29,487 nt of DNA from a virus: UHGV virus genome UHGV-0160150. One strand, 5' to 3'. The first letter of the stretch is position 1; each line of letters opens with the position of its first letter. A program made the position numbers and the translations under genes. Below the pieces are notes generated by a model. It made no database searches. It was given only the letters and a program-made list of their open reading frames with translations, and was not told where the DNA came from. Shown here piece by piece: positions 2,830 through 13,900 of the stretch.

Positions 2830-3030
2830 TCAGAATGGTAATTCGGATGGGCAGGAAAGAAATTCGCGCTCATTCATGCGCTCTCTTTGCGCCTGCCATA
2901 AACAAAGTTGTTTCTTTGATTTATCTCCCGCTTTACGCCAGTAACGAGCCTCAGCAATGTGATACTCTCTTTTTAATCGACTTAACTCTGGAGTTTTCGC
3001 CAGTTCTACCGGAATCATTTTGACCTCCAT
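2830..3030 (-). CDS. Small hypothetical protein (62-66 aa) in the gam-equivalent slot
   Basis: ORF between kil and Sak4. Two candidate starts (MEVKM... or MIPVE... with GGAGGT RBS). No motif recognised. Confidence 0.4.
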   Translation of the reverse strand: MEVKMIPVELAKTPELSRLKREYHIAEARYWRKAGDKSKKQLCLWQAQRERMNEREFLSCPSELPF

Positions 3031-3128
3031 TTTCTGTAGGCTTCTACGGCTTCACGAAACATCTTTTCATCGCCAATAAAAGTGGCGATAGTGAATTTAG
3101 TCTGGATAGCCATAAGTGTTTTATCCAT
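3015..3128 (-). CDS. kil: Kil-like small protein (host cell-division inhibitor)
   Basis: 37-aa frame MDKTLMAIQTKFTIATFIGDEKMFREAVEAYRKWRSK. ATG at 3128 sits in ATGGATAA, overlapping the cIII stop. Resembles lambda Kil from memory and lies directly downstream of cIII. Confidence 0.45.
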   Translation of the reverse strand: MDKTLMAIQTKFTIATFIGDEKMFREAVEAYRKWRSK

Positions 3129-3261
3129 TTTTGGGAACTCCTGGCTGATTAAGTATGTCGATAAGGCGTTTCCATCCATCACGTAATTTACGTGTGATTC
3201 GTTCAAGTAAAGATTCGGAAGGGCAGCCAGCAACAGGCCACCCTGCAATGGCATATTGCAT
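3121..3261 (-). CDS. cIII: CIII-like protein (FtsH protease inhibitor, stabilises CII)
   Basis: 46 aa MQYAIAGWPVAGCPSESLLERITRKLRDGWKRLIDILNQPGVPKNG, matching lambda CIII as I recall it. Strong RBS AAGGAG 6 nt before ATG at 3261. Confidence 0.65.
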   Translation of the reverse strand: MQYAIAGWPVAGCPSESLLERITRKLRDGWKRLIDILNQPGVPKNG

Positions 3262-3287
3262 GGTGTGCTCCTTATTTATACATAACG

Positions 3288-3310
3288 AAAAACGCCTCGA
3301 GTGAAGCGTT
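3288..3310 (-). terminator. Putative intrinsic terminator (minus strand), upstream of cIII
   Basis: Minus-strand hairpin AACGC...GCGTT followed by a TTTCGTT tract. Confidence 0.35.
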
Positions 3311-3321
3311 ATTGGTATGCA

Positions 3322-3348
3322 TATAAAAAGGCCCTCACACTGGAGGGC
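3322..3348 (-). terminator. Putative intrinsic terminator (minus strand), tL1-like position between ral and cIII
   Basis: Minus-strand hairpin GCCCTC-CAGTGT-GAGGGC followed by CTTTTTA. Confidence 0.5.
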
Positions 3349-3410
3349 AAAGAAGATTTCCAATAATCAGAACAAGTCGGCTCCTGTTTAGTTACGAGCG
3401 ACATTGCTCC

Positions 3411-3438
3411 GTGTATTCACTCGTTGGAATGAATACAC
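3411..3438. repeat. Perfect 9-bp inverted repeat GTGTATTCA / TGAATACAC with 10-nt loop
   Basis: Read directly; lies in the noncoding gap between ral-like and cIII. Confidence 0.6.
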
Positions 3439-3484
3439 AGTGCAGTGTTTATTCTGTTGTTTATGCCAAAAATAAAGGCCACCA

Positions 3485-3685
3485 TCAGGCAGCCTTGTTA
3501 TTCTGTTTACCAAGTTCTCTGGCAATCATTGCCGTCGTTCGTATTGCCCATTTATCGACATATTTCCCATCTTCCATTACAGGAAACATTTCTTCAGGCT
3601 TAACCATGCATTCCGATTGCAGCTTGCATCCATTGCATCGTTTGAATTGCCCACACCATTGATTTTTATCAATAGTCGTAGTCAT
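3485..3685 (-). CDS. ral: Small Cys-rich protein, Ral-like (restriction alleviation) candidate
   Basis: 66 aa MTTTIDKNQWCGQFKRCNGCKLQSEC... with four Cys in CX5CX2CX5C spacing. Size, position (between N side and cIII) and my recollection of lambda Ral fit; unverified. Confidence 0.45.
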   Translation of the reverse strand: MTTTIDKNQWCGQFKRCNGCKLQSECMVKPEEMFPVMEDGKYVDKWAIRTTAMIARELGKQNNKAA

Positions 3686-7130: not shown

Positions 7131-7277
7131 ATGACAAAACAACTCAGTCCTTACCAGGACAAAATTCACAAACACATACTACGTGATCGCTTCCTGTCCA
7201 GCTTCAAGCAGCCTGGTCGATTCCGGGCTGAGTTGGAAAAAGTGAAGCTGATGCAGAAGGAGAAAGGTCATGAGTAA
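7131..7277 (+). CDS. Small hypothetical protein (48 aa) between cII and O
   Basis: ATG at 7131 preceded by AGGAG (6 nt); the stop overlaps the O start region. Confidence 0.4.
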
Positions 7278-8130
7278 TCTTGCAACCGTAACACATTTAA
7301 GGCCCTCACAACGGCCTGTGGAGCGTCGTGTGGCAGAAGTTGAAGATGGTTATACCCGTCTTGCAAATGCCCTGTATGAAGAGCTTATCGGCGCAGATTT
7401 AACAAAAAATCAGAGCAAGGTTGCCCACGCCATATGCCGTAAAACATACGGATACGGTAAAAAGATGGATCGCATCTCTGATAGTCAGTTAGCTCAAATT
7501 ACCAGGCTGCCAAGACAGAAGGTAAACAAGGCCAAGAATGAGCTTATCGCGATGAAGGTAATCCTTCGCGAAGGCCAGCAAATCGGGCCTAACAAGAACA
7601 TCGAGGAATGGCAAATCGAAGGGTGTCACTACTCTGGTGATAATGTCACTGCATTGGTGACAAAAAGTGTCACCAAAACGGTGACAGCGCTGTCACCAAA
7701 ACAGGGACACACAAAAGAAACTATTACAAAAGAAAAAAGAAATAATAAAAACACTATGTCCGAAAGTGTTCGGACGGAGTGTGAAAAATCATCTGACCGT
7801 CACGAAGAAACCGACAAGGCATTCGAGGAAATATTCTGGTGTGCAGGCATGCGGAAAGCCGGGAAAAAAAACGCAGCTTCGGCATTCAGAACACAGTTCA
7901 GGGAATGGCGTAAAACTACCAGGGGTACGGCAAGCGAGTTTGCCACGATGCTGGCAGAAGACATCGCATGCAGGAATGGTAAGCAGTTCGGATTCGACAG
8001 GTTGTTACCATCGAGCTACTTGAACGGTCAGCGCTGGAACGACGAAAAGCCAGAAACCATTCAACCACAATCCAAACCATCATCCGCAATCACCGTATCG
8101 AAAACTGGCTACGTGTTTTTCGACAGGTGA
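7270..8130 (+). CDS. O: Replication initiator, lambda O-like N-terminal domain
   Basis: 286 aa. N-terminal region ([53 protein letters not shown]...GPNKNIEEW) matches lambda O's ori-binding domain as recalled; C-terminal half differs. Contains the iteron ori. Confidence 0.8.
7624..7775. repeat. Putative replication origin inside the O gene: iterons, AT-rich tract, palindrome
   Basis: Palindromic iterons GGTGACA-AAAAG-TGTCACC (7656-7674) and GGTGACA-GCGC-TGTCACC (7680-7697) plus degenerate TGTCAC copies upstream; an A-rich stretch 7711-7750; inverted repeat GTCCGAA-AGTG-TTCGGAC (7758-7775). Same layout as lambda ori. Confidence 0.6.
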
Positions 8131-8133
8131 ACC

Positions 8134-8241
8134 ATGAAATCAAAAATCAAATCGCTACTGGTCGCTGGTTATAACCACGGCTGGTTAAGTATTTCGTTTG
8201 TCGATTTCTGGTTTAAAAATCTCAATCTGAGGGAATCATGA
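8134..8241 (+). CDS. Small ORF (35 aa) coupled between O and the primase-helicase
   Basis: ATG at 8134 with AGGTGA RBS overlapping the O stop; its TGA overlaps the primase-helicase ATG (ATGA). Found by eye. Confidence 0.3.
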   Translation: MKSKIKSLLVAGYNHGWLSISFVDFWFKNLNLRES

Positions 8242-10118
8242 GGCCAAGTGAACTTAGCGACCTGCTTTGGGCGCAGGTTGACAGGGTGGCTCCGCACCTG
8301 TTGCCAAATGGCAAGAAAGAGGGGCATGAGTGGGTTGCCGGTAACGTCAACGGTGACAAGGGAAACAGCCTTAAGGTCAACCTTAGCGGCAAGAAAAAAT
8401 GGGCTGATTTCGCTGAGGGAGACGGCGGTGACATGCTTGATTTGTGGATGGCATGTCGTGGAATTAACCTGCATCAGGCTATGCAGGAAGCGAAAGCATT
8501 TCTCGGTATCAAGGATGACGATCACCATTTCGATGCCAGACGTGAGAAAAAATTCTCCAGACCTGATCGCAAGAAAATCGCCCGCTACGTTACCAGAACA
8601 GAATCCCATCTTGAGTACCTGCAATCGCGTGGCATATCGCCAGAAATCGTAAAGCGCTACGAGGTTGTCAGCGGCAAGGTGTGGAATGGAGAGCGGGAAC
8701 TGGATGCTCTGGTGATTCCGTACAAACGCGATGGTGAGTTGTTGCAGGTCAAGCGAATCAGCACTGAGCGCCCGGACGGGAAGAAAGTCATTATGGCAGA
8801 AGGTGATTGCGAACCTTGCCTGTTCGGATGGCAGGCTCTGGACGCTGGCGTGAGGGCGGTTGTACTTTGCGAAGGCGAAATTGATTGTATGAGCTATGCG
8901 CAATACGGCATCTCGGCGTTATCCGTACCGTTTGGTGGAGGGAAAGGCGCTAAGCAACAGTGGATTGAGTTTGAGTATCACAACCTCGACAGGTTTGAGG
9001 AAATATTCATCTCGATGGACGTTGATGATGTTGGTCGTGAAGCCGCAAGGGAAATCGCAAGCCGACTCGGTGAACATCGTTGCCGTCTTGTTACTCTGCC
9101 GTGCAAAGACATCAACGAATGCCTGATGAACGGTGTTACCGAGGATGAAATCTGGCAGTACATCGGCACGGCATCCTACTTCGATCCTGAAGAACTCTAC
9201 AGCGCGCGAGAGTTTTACCAGGACACTATCAACGCTTTCTACGGCAAGCAGCAGTATCTGTTTAATCCACCGTGGGAATCTCTGGCAGATAAATTCCAGT
9301 TCCGTGAGGCAGAGTTGACGCTGGTCAATGGTGTGAACGGTCACGGAAAAACGGAGGTTGTCGGGCATATGGCACTTGAGGCAATGCGTCAGGGTGTGAA
9401 GACGTGCATCGCGTCACTTGAGCTGAAGCCTGGTATTCTCCTTAAGCGCCTTACCCGTCAGGCGACGTGCTGCAAGATGCCGCCAGTGCTGGAAATTGAC
9501 TCTGCATTTAAATTTTATGACGAAAGACTTTGGGTGTTTGGCCTGACCGGAACGGCGAAAGCCGACAGGCTGATCGAAATATTCGACTACGCTCGCCGCC
9601 GATACGGGATCCAGTTATTCATCATCGACAGCCTGATGAAATGTGGCATAGGCGACGATGACTATAACGGGCAGAAGGCGTTTGTTGACTCGATTTGCGA
9701 CTTCAAAAACAAAACAAACTCCCACGTCATTCTCGTTACTCACTCGCGAAAAGGAGACAGCGAAGAAAAACCAACCGGGAAAATGGACGTAAAAGGCTCT
9801 GGAGCGATAACAGACCTGACAGACAACCTTTTCATCATCTGGCGTAACAAGGCTCGCGAGAGAGCGTTACAGAGAGTTCAGAGTGGTGAAAAGATGTCAG
9901 AGAAGGACGAACAGCTACTGGCATCTCCGGCATCTGTTTTGATGCTTGAAAAACAACGTAACGGCGAAGGTTGGGAAGGTGGTGTCCCGTTGTTCCTTGA
10001 CGAGCAATCGCACCAGTTCCTGCAACTTGAATCAGGATCGCCATATAGCTACATCGCCAATATGCCGAAATCGGAATATGACGAGGCGTGGCGACAGGAA
10101 AACGTGACGGAGTATTAA
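8238..10118 (+). CDS. Primase-helicase fusion (Toprim primase N-terminal region, DnaB/RecA-like helicase C-terminal region)
   Basis: 626 aa. Toprim-like acidic motifs (VVLCEGEIDCMSY, ISMDVDDVGREAA); C-terminal Walker A-like VNGVNGHGKTE and Walker B-like LFIIDSL. Takes the place of lambda P. Confidence 0.8.
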   Translation: MRPSELSDLLWAQVDRVAPHLLPNGKKEGHEWVAGNVNGDKGNSLKVNLSGKKKWADFAEGDGGDMLDLWMACRGINLHQAMQEAKAFLGIKDDDHHFDARREKKFSRPDRKKIARYVTRTESHLEYLQSRGISPEIVKRYEVVSGKVWNGERELDALVIPYKRDGELLQVKRISTERPDGKKVIMAEGDCEPCLFGWQALDAGVRAVVLCEGEIDCMSYAQYGISALSVPFGGGKGAKQQWIEFEYHNLDRFEEIFISMDVDDVGREAAREIASRLGEHRCRLVTLPCKDINECLMNGVTEDEIWQYIGTASYFDPEELYSAREFYQDTINAFYGKQQYLFNPPWESLADKFQFREAELTLVNGVNGHGKTEVVGHMALEAMRQGVKTCIASLELKPGILLKRLTRQATCCKMPPVLEIDSAFKFYDERLWVFGLTGTAKADRLIEIFDYARRRYGIQLFIIDSLMKCGIGDDDYNGQKAFVDSICDFKNKTNSHVILVTHSRKGDSEEKPTGKMDVKGSGAITDLTDNLFIIWRNKARERALQRVQSGEKMSEKDEQLLASPASVLMLEKQRNGEGWEGGVPLFLDEQSHQFLQLESGSPYSYIANMPKSEYDEAWRQENVTEY

Positions 10119-10200
10119 ATGACAATCTACATCACTGAGCTAATAGCAGGGTTATCGTTACTAATGGTTCTTACTGTATATATTATTAAGTATATTCTTT

Positions 10201-10812
10201 ATGCGAATAAAAAAAACAATTGATCACGATGAGCTTCTGTCAACATTATCATATGACTCAGAAACAGGAATATTTAAATGGCTAAAAACAAATTCAGTAG
10301 TAAGAGTAAAAGGTAGTATTGCTGGAGGTGTTAGTGGTGGTTATATATGCATTAGCATAAATAATGTTTTGTATTATGCGCATAGGCTTGCTTGGTTCTA
10401 TGTATACAAAAAATGGCCTCCTAAGTTTATTGATCATGTAAATGGGAACAGACTTGACAATAGGATTTCAAATCTAAGACTGGCAACAGAGGAGCAGAAT
10501 GCAAGAAACATTGTAGGTAATAGGTTAAACACATCCGGTGCGATTGGAGTGTCTTGGGATAAGACAACTGGCAGGTGGAAGTCTTATGTTGGTTATAAAA
10601 ATAAGACAATATCGTTAGGGTATTTCGATAGCAAAGAAGATGCAGCATTCATAGCAGCACTAGCAAGAAAGAAACTATATGGAACTTATGCGAGTAAAGC
10701 ACTTAATTGCGAGCATGAGCTTTTATCTCAATTTAATAATGATGAGGATAAACTTGCGGAATATCTTAAGGAAAAATCTAAAAGGACTCGAAAGCGTGTT
10801 AAAAAAAGATAA
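10201..10812 (+). mobile_element. HNH homing endonuclease with AP2-type DNA-binding domain (free-standing)
   Basis: 203-aa ORF. N-terminal LLSTLSYDSETGIFKWL, HNH core IDHVNGNRLDNRISNLRLATEEQN, AP2-like segment GVSWDKTTGRWKSYVGYKNKTISLGYFDSKEDAA. Strongly AT-rich island between the replication and nin modules. Confidence 0.75.
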
Positions 10813-10859
10813 AGGCCTGCTGGTAATCGCAGGTCTTTTTATTTGGGGGAGAGTAAATC

Positions 10860-11066
10860 GTGGCTGAGTTAATTTTCTCTGCATTGAGGCTTCTCGGTGC
10901 TATGTGGATGGTGGCGACGTTCATTGTGATTGCTGGCTGTTTTGTCCGGTTGGTAGGCGAAGGTAAAGACCTGGTGGGTGTGCTTTTCGGTAGCATTCTC
11001 CTGTGGGTGATTATCGGTGTTGCGCCTGTTGCTGTAGCAAAAATGGCGTGGCGTTTTGTTAGTTGA
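10860..11066 (+). CDS. Small hydrophobic protein (68 aa, two predicted TM helices)
   Basis: ORF with GTG start at 10860. Two hydrophobic stretches (MWMVATFIVIAGCFV and VLFGSILLWVIIGVAPVAV). Confidence 0.4.
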   Translation: MAELIFSALRLLGAMWMVATFIVIAGCFVRLVGEGKDLVGVLFGSILLWVIIGVAPVAVAKMAWRFVS

Positions 11067-11073
11067 GGTGACA

Positions 11074-11484
11074 ATGAAGCAAACAATCTTCCTCCGAACT
11101 AAGCAACAACAGCAAGCTGCAATAAATGCCATCCTCGCAACACCACTCGATAAAGACAAGCCAGTCACCATCCGCATTACTGACTACAAGCGCAACCTTG
11201 ACCAGAACGCAAAATTTCACGCGATGCTGGCGGATATCGCACGTCAGGTTCAATGGTGCGGCAAATGGTTAAAACCAGAACAATGGAAGGTTTTGTTGAT
11301 TAGCGGTCATGCAGTGGCAACAAAGCAGGAAGCTGATGTTTTGTCCGGCCTTGAAGGCGAATACGTCAACATTCGCGAAAGTAGCGCGCAGATGAGTGTG
11401 AAGCGTATGGCAAGTCTGATTGAGTACACGACAGCATGGGCTATTGGTCAGGGCGTCAGATTTACCGACAGGAGGTACGAATGA
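11074..11484 (+). CDS. ninB: NinB (Orf-family recombination mediator)
   Basis: 136 aa from ATG at 11074 (GAGGTG RBS). Motifs [31 protein letters not shown] parallel lambda NinB. Confidence 0.8.
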
Positions 11485-11663
11485 GACGACAGCGACGAAG
11501 TATCACCGACATAATCTGCGAAAACTGCAAATACCTTCCAACGAAACGCTCCAGAAATAAACGCAAGCCAATCCCAAAAGAATCTGACGTAAAAACCTTC
11601 AATTACACGGCTCACCTGTGGGATATCCGGTGGCTTAGAGAACGTGCGAGGAAAACAAGGTGA
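11481..11663 (+). CDS. ninE: NinE
   Basis: 60 aa [69 protein letters not shown]; ATGA overlap with the ninB stop. Near-identical to lambda NinE as recalled. Confidence 0.75.
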
Positions 11664-11830
11664 TTGACCCAAATCGAAGTTACGAACAAGGAAGTGTCGA
11701 GCGAGCTTTAACGTGCGCTAACTGCGGTCAGAAGCTGCATGTGCTGGAAGTTCACGTGTGTGAGCACTGCTGCGCAGAACTGATGAGCGATCCGAATAGC
11801 TCGATGCACGAGGAAGAAGACGATGGCTAA
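11660..11830 (+). CDS. ninF: NinF
   Basis: 56 aa from GTG at 11660 overlapping the ninE stop (GTGA): [56 protein letters not shown]. Found by eye (below track cutoff); matches lambda NinF as recalled. Confidence 0.65.
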
Positions 11831-12434
11831 ACCAGCGCGAAGACGATGTAAAAACGATGAATGTCGGGAATGGTTTCACCCTGCATTCGCCAATCAGTGG
11901 TGGTGCTCTCCAGAGTGTGGAACCAAGATAGCACTCGAACGACGAAGCAAAGAACGCGAAAAAGCGGAAAAGGCAGCAGAGAAGAAACGACGACGAGAGG
12001 AGCAGAAACAGAAAGATAAACTGAAAATTCGAAAACTCGCCTTAAAGCCCCGCAGTTACTGGATTAAACAAGCCCAACAAGCTGTAAACGCCTTCATCAG
12101 AGAAAGAGACCGCGACTTACCATGTATCTCGTGCGGAACGCTCACGTCTGCTCAGTGGGATGCCGGACATTACCGGACAACTGCTGCGGCACCTCAACTC
12201 CGATTTGATGAACGCAATATTCACAAGCAATGCGTGGTGTGCAACCAGCACAAAAGCGGAAATCTCGTTCCGTATCGCGTCGAACTGATTAGCCGTATCG
12301 GGCAGGAAGCAGTAGACGAAATCGAATCAAACCATAGCCGCCATCGCTGGACTGTCGAAGAGTGCAGGGCCATCAAGGCGGAGTATCAGCAGAAACTCAA
12401 AGACCTGCGAAATAGCAGAAGTGAGGCCGCATGA
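11823..12434 (+). CDS. ninG: NinG (Rap; recombination/junction-resolving nuclease)
   Basis: 203 aa, Cys-rich and basic; sequence and size match lambda NinG as recalled. Confidence 0.85.
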
Positions 12435-12637
12435 CGTTCTCAGTAAAAACCATTCCAGACATGCTCGTTGAAGCATACGGAAACCAGACAGAAGTAGCAC
12501 GCAGACTGAAATGTAGTCGCGGTACGGTCAGAAAATACGTTGATGATAAAGACGGGAAAATGCACGCCATCGTCAACGACGTTCTAATGGTTCATCGCGG
12601 ATGGAGTGAAAGAGATGCGCTATTACGAAAGAATTGA
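12431..12637 (+). CDS. ninH: NinH
   Basis: 68 aa [37 protein letters not shown]..., matching lambda NinH. ATGA overlap with the ninG stop. Confidence 0.85.
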
Positions 12638-13280
12638 TGGCAGCAAATACCGAAATATTTGGGTAGTTGGCGATCTGCACGGATGCTACACGAACCTGAT
12701 GAAAAAACTGGAGACGATAGGATTCGACACCAAAAAAGACCTGCTTATCTCGGTGGGCGATTTGGTTGATCGCGGTACAGAGAACGTCGAATGCCTGGAA
12801 TTAATCACATTCCCCTGGTTCAGAGCTGTACGTGGAAACCATGAGCAAATGATGATTGATGGCTTATCAGAGCGTGGAAACGTCAATCACTGGCTGCTTA
12901 ATGGCGGTGGCTGGTTCTTTAATCTCGATTACGACAAAGAAATTCTGGCTAAAGCTCTTGCCCATAAAGCAGATGAACTTCCGTTAATCATCGAACTGGT
13001 GAGTAAAGGAAAAAAATATGTCATCTGCCACGCCGATTATCCTTGTGATAAATACGAGTTTGGAAAGCCAGTTGATCATCAGCAGGTAATCTGGAACCGC
13101 GAACGAATCAGCAACTCACAAGACGGGATCGTGAAAGAAATCAAAGGCGCGGACACGTTCATCTTTGGTCATACGCCAGCAGTGAAACCACTCAAGTTTG
13201 CCAACCAGATGTATATCGATACCGGCGCAGTGTTCTGCGGAAACCTCACATTGATTCAGGTACAGGGAGAAGGCGCATGA
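12615..13280 (+). CDS. ninI: NinI Ser/Thr protein phosphatase (calcineurin-like metallophosphatase)
   Basis: 221 aa from ATG at 12615 (MRYYERIDG). Metallophosphatase motifs GDLHG, GDLVDRG, GNHE. Size and sequence as lambda PPase. Confidence 0.9.
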
Positions 13281-13900
13281 GACTCGAAAGCGTAGCTAAA
13301 TTTCATTCGCCAAAAAGCCCGATGATGAGCGACTCACCACGGGCTACTGCTTCTGACTCTCTTTCCGGTACTGATGTGATGGCTGCTATGGGGATGGCGC
13401 AATCACAAGCCGGATTCGGAATGGCTGCATTCTGTGGTAAGCACGAACTCAGCCAGAATGACAAACAAAAGGCTATCAACTATCTGATGCAATTTGCACA
13501 CAAGGTATCGGGGAAATACCGTGGCGTGGCAAAGCTTGAAGGAAATACTAAGGCAAAGGTACTGCAAGTGCTCGCAACATTCGCTTATGCGGATTATTGC
13601 CGTAGTGCCGCTACGCCGGGCGCAAGATGCAGAGATTGCCACGGTACAGGCCGTGCGGTAGATATAGCAAAAACAGAGCAGTGGGGGAGAGTTGTTGAGA
13701 AAGAGTGCGGAAGATGCAAAGGCGTCGGCTATTCCAGGATGCCAGCAAGCGCCGCATATCGCGCTGTAACGATGCTAATCCCAAACCTTACCCAACCCAC
13801 CTGGTCACGCACTGTTAAGCCGCTGTATGACGCTCTGGTGGTGCAATGCCACAAAGAAGAGTCAATCGCAGACAACATTTTGAATGCGGTCACACGTTAG
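13277..13900 (+). CDS. Q: Late-gene antiterminator Q
   Basis: 207 aa, Cys-rich zinc-binding region (CRDCHGTG...CGRCKGVG). Followed by the pR' promoter, as for lambda Q. Confidence 0.9.

Follow-up and report, generated by a model that had tools for sequence, protein, structure and literature searches.

An HNN-AP2 type endonuclease gene inserted into the ninA-tR2 element of a lambdoid phage

Introduction

In the window analysed here, a 29,487-nucleotide stretch of viral DNA (UHGV-0160150), a strongly AT-rich segment carrying an HNH endonuclease gene separates the replication module of a lambdoid phage from its nin module. This arrangement raises the questions of where exactly foreign DNA begins and ends, how it came to occupy this position, and whether a 34-aa hydrophobic ORF that overlaps the start of the endonuclease gene was brought in with it.

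Free-standing homing endonucleases of the HNH-AP2 type form an established class (Magnani et al. 2004, as cited in PMC10448857 and PMC2248197), and such genes tend to sit at boundaries of genetic exchange (PMC10448857). The conserved boxes of the HNN-AP2 group, HRLAW, WP, DH, DNR, NLR and N, were described for endonucleases of Xanthomonas phages (PMC2248197). The gene studied here is already annotated in several phage records, and its presence in the window is real but ordinary; we found no paper defining the site of the element in ninA/tR2 or testing its activity. Here, we define the site by comparing alleles that carry the insert (filled) with alleles that lack it (empty).

Results

The insert lies inside ninA and abuts tR2

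Positions 7270-13900 of the window form a typical lambdoid early-right region. An O-type initiator gene (7270-8130, Phage_rep_O) is followed by the gene of a 626-aa primase-helicase (8238-10118, + strand) with Toprim_2 and DnaB-like ATPase domains, which ends with a TAA at 10116-10118. On the other side of the AT-rich segment, the first nin-side gene is a 68-aa membrane-like ORF of unknown function (10860-11066, + strand, PHROG 1165) that lies outside the insert and precedes NinB (11074-11484), the other nin genes and Q. The preliminary description of this DNA had reported an AT-rich island between the two modules, at 10119-10860. The compositional shift was borne out, as GC content is 0.34 within 10151-10815 and 0.50 and 0.49 in the adjoining 2-kb stretches. 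The proposed span was correct in that an insert is present, but both of its ends proved to be recipient sequence: comparison of filled and empty alleles delimits a 665-bp insert at 10151-10815 (+ strand), placed inside ninA between codon 11 and the 5' foot of the tR2 hairpin.

The empty site reads ...CTAATAACAGG^CCTGCTGGTAATCGCAGG... in lambda, HK620, HK75, HK630, mEpX1 and vB_EcoP-720R6, and the empty-allele sequence was read as ATGACCATCTACATCACTGAGCTAATAACAGG^CCTGCTGGTAATCGCAGGCCTTTTTATTTGGGGG..., where the caret marks the position taken by the 665 bp in filled alleles. In lambda, the empty site corresponds to positions 40,567-40,647. The left homology arm, common to filled and empty alleles, is the 5' end of ninA (10119-10150, + strand; 10 codons plus 2 nt); it is identical apart from SNPs in the six empty phages, where it runs straight into tR2. 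The right arm, which extends to about 10853, belongs to a 3' remnant of ninA (10816-10867, + strand) that encodes ...LLVIAGLFIWGRVNRG*. This remnant is cut off from its own start, and the next gene begins at a GTG that overlaps the remnant's TGA. The insert junctions slide within a common AGG (10148-10150 / 10813-10815) and are the same in every filled copy. Given its length of 665 bp, the insert leaves the two halves of ninA out of frame with each other.

Pairs of filled and empty phages sharing the same flanks support this placement. HK022 pairs in this way with HK75, HK630 and HK620, and the window pairs with vB_EcoP-720R6, an empty phage that has the window's own primase-helicase. Phages without the HNH gene align with the window only from position 10809 on. 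In HK620 and HK630 the intact gene, of 26-27 codons, carries the label 'NinA, similar to P22 NinA', and tR2 is annotated within it. The replication module and the nin region are joined by this ninA-tR2 element, a conserved linker of approximately 84 bp.

In the window, tR2 occupies 10811-10845 (+ strand), with a stem-loop at 10811-10838 followed by a U-tract. The stem-loop has a predicted energy of -14.7 kcal/mol and contains one G-U pair (T at 10835); the corresponding hairpin is labelled tR2 in HK620 and 'terminator' in HK75. It is rebuilt directly 3' of the HNH gene, whose TAA (10810-10812) meets the stem. The preliminary description had recognised neither the position of the element, within ninA and at the foot of tR2, nor the identity of the 10811-10838 hairpin as tR2 itself. 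An Rfam search of 9900-11200 returned only STnc370, in antisense and at chance level (E=0.94, 25.6 against 54 bits).

A further candidate, a second element sharing the left junction, was suggested by the edge of ISEc8 at position 10150 in phage 1717. It turned out to be a routine IS insertion, which lies a few bases within the island and is accompanied by an 8-bp duplication (GGTTATCG).

The insert encodes an endonuclease of the HNN-AP2 class

The HNH gene (10201-10812, + strand) encodes a 203-aa protein that matches PHROG 99 'HNH endonuclease' with E=3e-72. Residues 58-102 cover the full HNH_3 profile (PF13392, E=8e-16, 57.9 bits, gathering cut-off 24.8 bits). The AP2 match (PF00847, E=1e-7) scored 32.6 bits, 0.7 bit below the gathering cut-off of 33.3 bits, and phmmer aligned the protein with the AP2 domain of WRI1 at E=1.5e-3. 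In an alignment of 23-24 homologues, H61-R62-L63-A64-W65, P73, D78-H79, N87-R88 and N91-L92-R93 do not vary, N100 and N103 vary little or not at all, and the catalytic D78-H79, N91 and N100 are all retained in the protein of the window. The family comprises at least 1783 members at E<=1e-5, mostly with both HNH_3 and AP2.

The AlphaFold model (pLDDT 87.9) comprises an N-terminal beta region, a beta-beta-alpha finger of the beta-beta-alpha-metal fold (E76-79, E92-95, H97-102), and a three-stranded sheet packed with a helix in the AP2 part (E117-120, E125-132, E135-142, H145-163). Foldseek matched the AP2 part to two plant structures, the AP2 domains of TEM1 (7et5, rmsd 1.2 A over 48 columns) and AtERF1 (1gcc, rmsd 1.5 A over 51 columns), and the predicted model thereby confirms the AP2 fold. 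A free-standing endonuclease with HNH and AP2 motifs, as first proposed from the letters of the sequence, is upheld by the Pfam matches, the conserved boxes and the AlphaFold and Foldseek comparisons.

For the N-terminal half, Foldseek returned I-HmuI (PDB 1U3E), the intron-encoded HNH nicking endonuclease of phage SPO1, with a probability of 0.99 over 109 columns. The His-Me finger and the preceding beta-sheet align, phmmer covers residues 58-114, and the D74-H75...N96 region of I-HmuI corresponds to the catalytic boxes. However, sequence identity is about 19%, and I-HmuI is encoded within an intron and binds DNA through NUMOD and helix-turn-helix modules instead of AP2.

Close counterparts are the free-standing homing endonucleases of the HNN-AP2 class, which include group I of the Xanthomonas phages Xp10, OP1 and Xop411, IPA-HNH of ICP1, and proteins of T5, T1 and RB phages. 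The protein shares with them the N-terminal beta region, the HNN His-Me finger with all boxes and no Cys dyads, and the C-terminal AP2 domain, and the genes of the class are likewise free-standing, sporadic and found at module boundaries. Two features set the present gene apart. Unlike the genes of the Xoo phages, which have no conserved flanks, it occupies one defined, highly conserved insertion site in a micro-gene and terminator. Furthermore, it has a 38-aa basic C-terminal extension that its relatives lack and that takes the reading frame up to the terminator.

Among named relatives, HK022_57 (NP_597900, 'putative endonuclease', cited in the record of phage 1717) and the 'HNH endonuclease' of the Stx phages PA28, 1717, Stx2a_WGPS4/6 and SH2026Stx1 represent the same insert, with 97.5-98% nucleotide identity, the same junctions and the same 203-aa protein; the PA28 gene is also named 'homing endonuclease'. 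The window differs from these phages only in its flanks (the primase-helicase upstream and the PHROG 1165 ORF downstream) and in SNPs at 10124, 10216-10217 and 10835. The island of E. coli ECO20 (WP_077070034) is 100% identical to that of the window.

The element is sporadic and reassorted relative to both flanks

The preliminary description had proposed a comparison with insertion-less relatives and had asked whether the gene is ubiquitous at this position. It is not: the comparison placed the site in ninA, before tR2, and the insertion is a minority allele at this one exact site. Among 5426 complete E. coli genomes, 126 carry the insert, in 138 places (up to 3 per genome) and with 97.5-100% identity, and all of these copies are annotated 'HNH endonuclease'. 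The uninterrupted 84-nt ninA/tR2 site, counted at a coverage of at least 80%, is found in 1884 of the same genomes (about 35%), with as many as 6 places in a single genome. When viral contigs were scanned for the pattern of the ninA 32-mer, 120 stretches emerged, 117 of which were empty and only 2 filled. With one genome per species scanned, close relatives turned up in E. coli only. A more distant HNH relative with 62% identity, L042, is the sole one in a comparable position, and its 5' 200 nt are identical.

A megablast search of phage records recovered 10119-10853 at 97.5-98% identity in HK022, PA28, Stx2a_WGPS4/6, phi330, SH2026Stx1, Stx2_16002 and others. The genes upstream of the filled sites are unrelated to one another and include a P/DnaB-like helicase, Ren, a 'DnaB analogue' and an extra small ORF. 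Overall, copies of the insert that are 97.5-100% identical follow the ends of at least six unrelated upstream genes and precede several distinct right flanks, and individual island haplotypes are seen again in combination with other flanks on either side. By these sequence comparisons, the element appears site-specific, sporadic and reassorted relative to both flanks. Presence or absence at one site together with sporadic spread is the pattern of a free-standing homing endonuclease gene, as known for the HNN-AP2 class. We therefore favor the reading, with a probability of roughly 70%, that this is a free-standing HNN-AP2 homing-endonuclease gene that inserted into the lambdoid ninA-tR2 element and spreads by homing.

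Spread of the insert as passive cargo has to be weighed against this reading. The insert may have arrived once by illegitimate recombination and then moved by ordinary homologous exchange in the ninA/tR2 arms, with the endonuclease inactive, decaying or irrelevant to its spread; indeed, lambdoid mosaicism alone could move the insert through the conserved arms with no need for endonuclease activity. The ninA/tR2 region is a general mosaic joint, as both flanks reassort and the same 32-mer precedes alternative terminator hairpins (10 of the 117 empty stretches have such hairpins, with compensatory changes). The low frequency of the allele (the 126 genomes above) and the existence of degenerate copies, one frameshifted in an A-run (L021) and one with a split HNH gene (NZ_LR882978), also fit passive spread. 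A single origin would equally explain a SNP linked to the insert, at 10146 (+ strand), where a G is found in all 30 filled sites and an A in 116 of 117 empty ones; the single empty site with a G (L154) adjoins a primase-helicase gene upstream. This linkage is compatible with co-conversion of the SNP with the insert and just as compatible with a single origin. On the other hand, despite 2.5% nucleotide divergence, the ORF and its catalytic boxes are intact in nearly all copies (32 of 36 tabulated copies have an intact HNH ORF, and two others, L036 and L038, are incomplete because the retrieved stretch ends there). Moreover, in the absence of a break, recombination through arms as short as 32 and about 37 bp is inefficient, and the gene belongs to a class otherwise known as mobile. 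On balance, we consider spread as passive cargo unlikely, and homing is better supported than this or either of the rival explanations discussed below.

The 34-aa ORF is a disrupted ninA

A 34-aa ORF (10119-10223, + strand) that begins at the primase-helicase stop and overlaps the start of the HNH gene (10201-10812) had been described beforehand, and both sets of coordinates hold. Its start is the base directly after the primase-helicase TAA, its sequence is MTIYITELIAGLSLLMVLTVYIIKYILYANKKNN, and it shares 23 nt with the HNH ORF in a different frame. Its treatment as a separate feature of the island did not survive the comparison, however, as its ATG and first 32 nt are those of the recipient ninA (P22/lambda/HK620 NinA, PHROG 5907). 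As judged from the alleles compared, the micro-ORF is a disrupted ninA, a chimera (ninA') of 11 ninA codons and 23 insert-encoded codons (12-34). It has the same start, Shine-Dalgarno position, ATGA/TAAATG junction and residues 1-11 as NinA of lambda, P22 and HK620. Whereas NinA (26-27 aa) reads through the tR2 hairpin, the micro-ORF diverts into the insert after codon 11 and leaves the 3' half of ninA orphaned. Accordingly, it matches only positions 1-12 of the 27 in PHROG 5907 (E=4e-4), while intact NinA of the HK620 type matches positions 1-26 (E=1e-18), and tR2, which in NinA lies inside the gene, is found 590 nt past the micro-ORF stop.

Translation of this ORF was considered in the light of its start region. 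A GGAG Shine-Dalgarno for the ninA start lies at 10109-10112, within the last codons of the primase-helicase gene. A GGAG-like sequence is present 6-8 nt ahead of the ninA ATG in 7 unrelated upstream contexts, and the upstream genes end as ATGA or TAAATG at the ninA start. Because the Shine-Dalgarno is kept across unrelated contexts, ribosome loading at the ninA start appears to be conserved. In lambda, tR2 is placed 30 bp downstream of the AUG of NinA and 16 bp upstream of its stop codon, and the NinA initiation site 'is not weak' in a reporter (Li et al., PMC4824070); the same article credits the site to Kröger & Hobom 1982 and to lambda ribosome profiling. Given the conserved Shine-Dalgarno and these reporter data, at least the first codons of the micro-ORF are likely translated, by homology with NinA.

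Could the micro-ORF nevertheless be an independent gene for a functional small membrane protein carried in by the island? It has a good Shine-Dalgarno and start, its predicted product consists of a single hydrophobic helix followed by a basic tail as in NinA, and it is annotated in two records, as HK022_56 (AF069308) and in phi330. We joined the ninA 32-mer, post hoc, to Markov-generated or offset island sequence: an ORF of at least 26 codons with a NinA-like hydrophobic window arose in just 0.4% (Markov) and 1.8% (offset island) of these null fusions, which is mildly suggestive of a role for the tail. However, the start and first 11 codons come from the recipient and not from the island. The open frame of 34 codons is itself unremarkable, about 14% of random AT-rich continuations remaining open as long, and AT-rich DNA yields I/L/Y/K/N-rich peptides by composition; the insert-encoded tail is rich in these residues, as expected from DNA of 22% GC. 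Homologues of the tail are confined to HNH-linked copies (a tblastn search of 50,697 phage records gave 19 identical HNH-linked copies and no other homologue), and the tail offers no sequence variation on which selection would show: the 50 nt of the micro-ORF that precede the HNH start (10151-10200) have zero variable sites in 32 aligned island copies. Furthermore, PGAP makes no call for the micro-ORF, and in O157 Stx-phage lineages it is broken by the ISEc8 insertion described above and by a second IS, with the HNH ORF left intact. An independent membrane-protein gene thus seems very unlikely.

Proposed expression and homing of the endonuclease gene

Since the HNH stop abuts an intact tR2, transcription of the pR replication operon would include the gene as its last cistron. 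The + strand of the island was found to contain no sigma-70-like promoter. This result, and the fact that the sole terminator, tR2, belongs to the recipient, led us to reject a moron, which would carry a promoter and a terminator of its own.

The HNH start (10201) has no Shine-Dalgarno and lies 20 nt upstream of the micro-ORF stop, in an RNA region that is predicted to be unstructured and A/U-rich (fold z=+0.6). As part of the homing reading, we propose that the endonuclease is expressed from the end of the pR operon as follows. Ribosomes would load at the ninA start and could reach the HNH start either by termination-reinitiation or via the unstructured A/U-rich leader, and the outcome would be low, early expression of the endonuclease. 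The enzyme would then bind through its AP2 domain and introduce nicks or breaks at intact ninA/tR2 sites of other lambdoid phages, whether co-infecting or resident. Repair from the filled allele could proceed via the conserved arms of 32 bp and about 37 bp, lengths usable by Red-type recombination, and would copy the insert plus the linked G at 10146 into the new genome. We propose that the element's own site is protected because the insert splits the target, although the cleavage site need not coincide with the insertion site. The two IS insertions of the O157 lineages disrupt the micro-ORF and disconnect the HNH ORF from pR but leave that ORF whole, which indicates that this coupling is unnecessary for the ORF to persist in prophages.

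The position of the HNH stop also bears on whether the insert serves the phage that carries it. In reporters, termination at tR2 is almost abolished when a translated ORF ends a few bp ahead of it (PMC4824070), and the HNH stop touches the hairpin; the insert might, more speculatively, also raise read-through into nin and Q. Such altered read-through, or exclusion of rival lambdoid phages and prophages by cutting them at tR2, could have maintained the gene as something other than a purely selfish element, and the uninterrupted target-like sites counted above in E. coli speak for the latter. However, the allele is rare for an advantageous trait. Translation of the HNH ORF is probably weak without a Shine-Dalgarno, such that any effect of its ribosomes on tR2 may be small. 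A benefit to the phage as the reason for the element's maintenance therefore has, in our view, only a slight chance of being correct.

A more elaborate version of homing would see the element as adapted to its micro-gene and terminator target, mending both peptide and terminator. The 5' end of the insert would supply a replacement hydrophobic helix and basic tail, such that a NinA-like micro-protein is still made; the same ORF would act as a translational leader for the HNH start; and the HNH stop at the foot of tR2 might tune read-through into nin and Q. The target would then be one short sequence common to nearly all E. coli lambdoid phages, including tR2 of lambda. This idea is tentative, and we regard it as rather improbable.

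Under the simpler homing reading, the ninA/tR2 sequence of lambda provides an exact candidate target for an uncharacterised HNN-AP2 endonuclease. It also illustrates how a homing-type gene can spread among phages with unrelated neighbours by occupying an 84-bp conserved linker at a module boundary. The site is a detail within a known kind of element and leaves the current understanding of phage biology unchanged. For annotators, the 34-aa "hypothetical protein" of HK022 and phi330 corresponds to a truncated ninA fused to insert sequence.

Module joints around ninA codon 11

The ninA 32-mer that leads into the AT-rich HNH-AP2 island (window 10119-10150 for the 32-mer, 10151-10815 for the island) was also found upstream of other terminator hairpins (GGGGCTATTTACACAGTAGCCC, GGGGCCACTTACACAGTGGCC) in 10 viral contigs (L073, L099, L156 and 7 others). 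All 10 are empty alleles, i.e. they lack the island, and their alternative hairpins lie from the equivalent of window 10151 onward, with compensatory changes in the stems. Because the same 32-mer precedes differing hairpins with compensatory stems, the ninA codon-11 position is a general mosaic joint. Since the hairpins differ yet their stem changes compensate, it is the terminator, and not the NinA C-terminus, that is conserved. Phage Stx2_16002 (LC645439; L008, 2024-2284) carries an additional segment of 261 bp between the ninA ATG and the stop of the same primase-helicase gene. This segment has a small ORF of its own, so modules join on the 5' side of ninA too.

Filled ninA/tR2 sites have a G at window 10146, where nearly all empty sites have an A. 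The sole empty site with this insert-linked G (ATAGCAGGCCTGCTGG) was found on the reverse strand of the viral contig L154 (~1312-1395), with a primase-helicase gene upstream. Either this site is the target allele in its ancestral state, or it has lost the insert precisely.

At the opposite end of the island, the tR2 copy of the window has a T in place of C at 10835, in the 3' arm of the stem (GCAGGTCT), which changes a G-C pair to G-U; folding of the hairpin is kept (-14.7 kcal/mol). A 62-codon ORF on the + strand (10679-10867), in frame +1 relative to the 3' end of the HNH gene, passes through tR2, and its last codons are those of the orphaned NinA C-terminus (…GLLVIAGLFIWGRVNRG); the ORF is probably a chance occurrence.

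Chimeric and paralogous endonucleases

A chimeric endonuclease was identified in a Logan contig from SRR10380363 (L042, 2919-3516), downstream of a gene for a 626-aa primase-helicase resembling that of the window. Identity to the window extends over the micro-ORF (10119-10223) and the island's opening ~200 nt, beyond which the catalytic and AP2 parts change to those of a 171-aa relative (62% overall identity), and the right end is joined to rusA without tR2. The lambdoid-like ENA contig ERZ15185030 (L043) encodes two HNH_3-AP2 paralogues, at 812-1303 and 3001-3489, one located between a DnaB-type helicase and NinB and the other directly before the terminase genes. The replication/nin boundary is a recurrent place for relatives of this class.

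Uneven conservation and disruption of the island

The insert is not evenly conserved over its length. In 32 copies of the island, variation is absent from the first ~205 nt (10151-10355) apart from an A-run, and 13 of the variable sites cluster within 10356-10564. The A-run (10208-10217), in the overlap of the micro-ORF and the HNH gene (10201-10812), comprises 8 A in the window; most copies have 7 A, then CT instead of AC. One more A in the viral contig L021 frameshifts the HNH gene, and in E. coli NZ_LR882978 (H70) the endonuclease gene is split into separate HNH and AP2 ORFs.

The micro-ORF is interrupted by ISEc8 just inside the island (L004, 1501; L046, 938-976; phage 1717, NC_011357 14,837-17,325; also L037), with an 8-bp target duplication, GGTTATCG, at 10150-10157. 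In these O157 Stx2 phages, the HNH gene is intact but cut off from the replication operon by ISEc8. A second IS-like end (…GGATTTCCGGGGCGGTTCATAC), unlike ISEc8, abuts the island within the micro-ORF in L033 (~1976) and L036 (~24), at the equivalent of window ~10170. It represents an insertion independent of ISEc8 into the same AT-rich 50 nt of the island.
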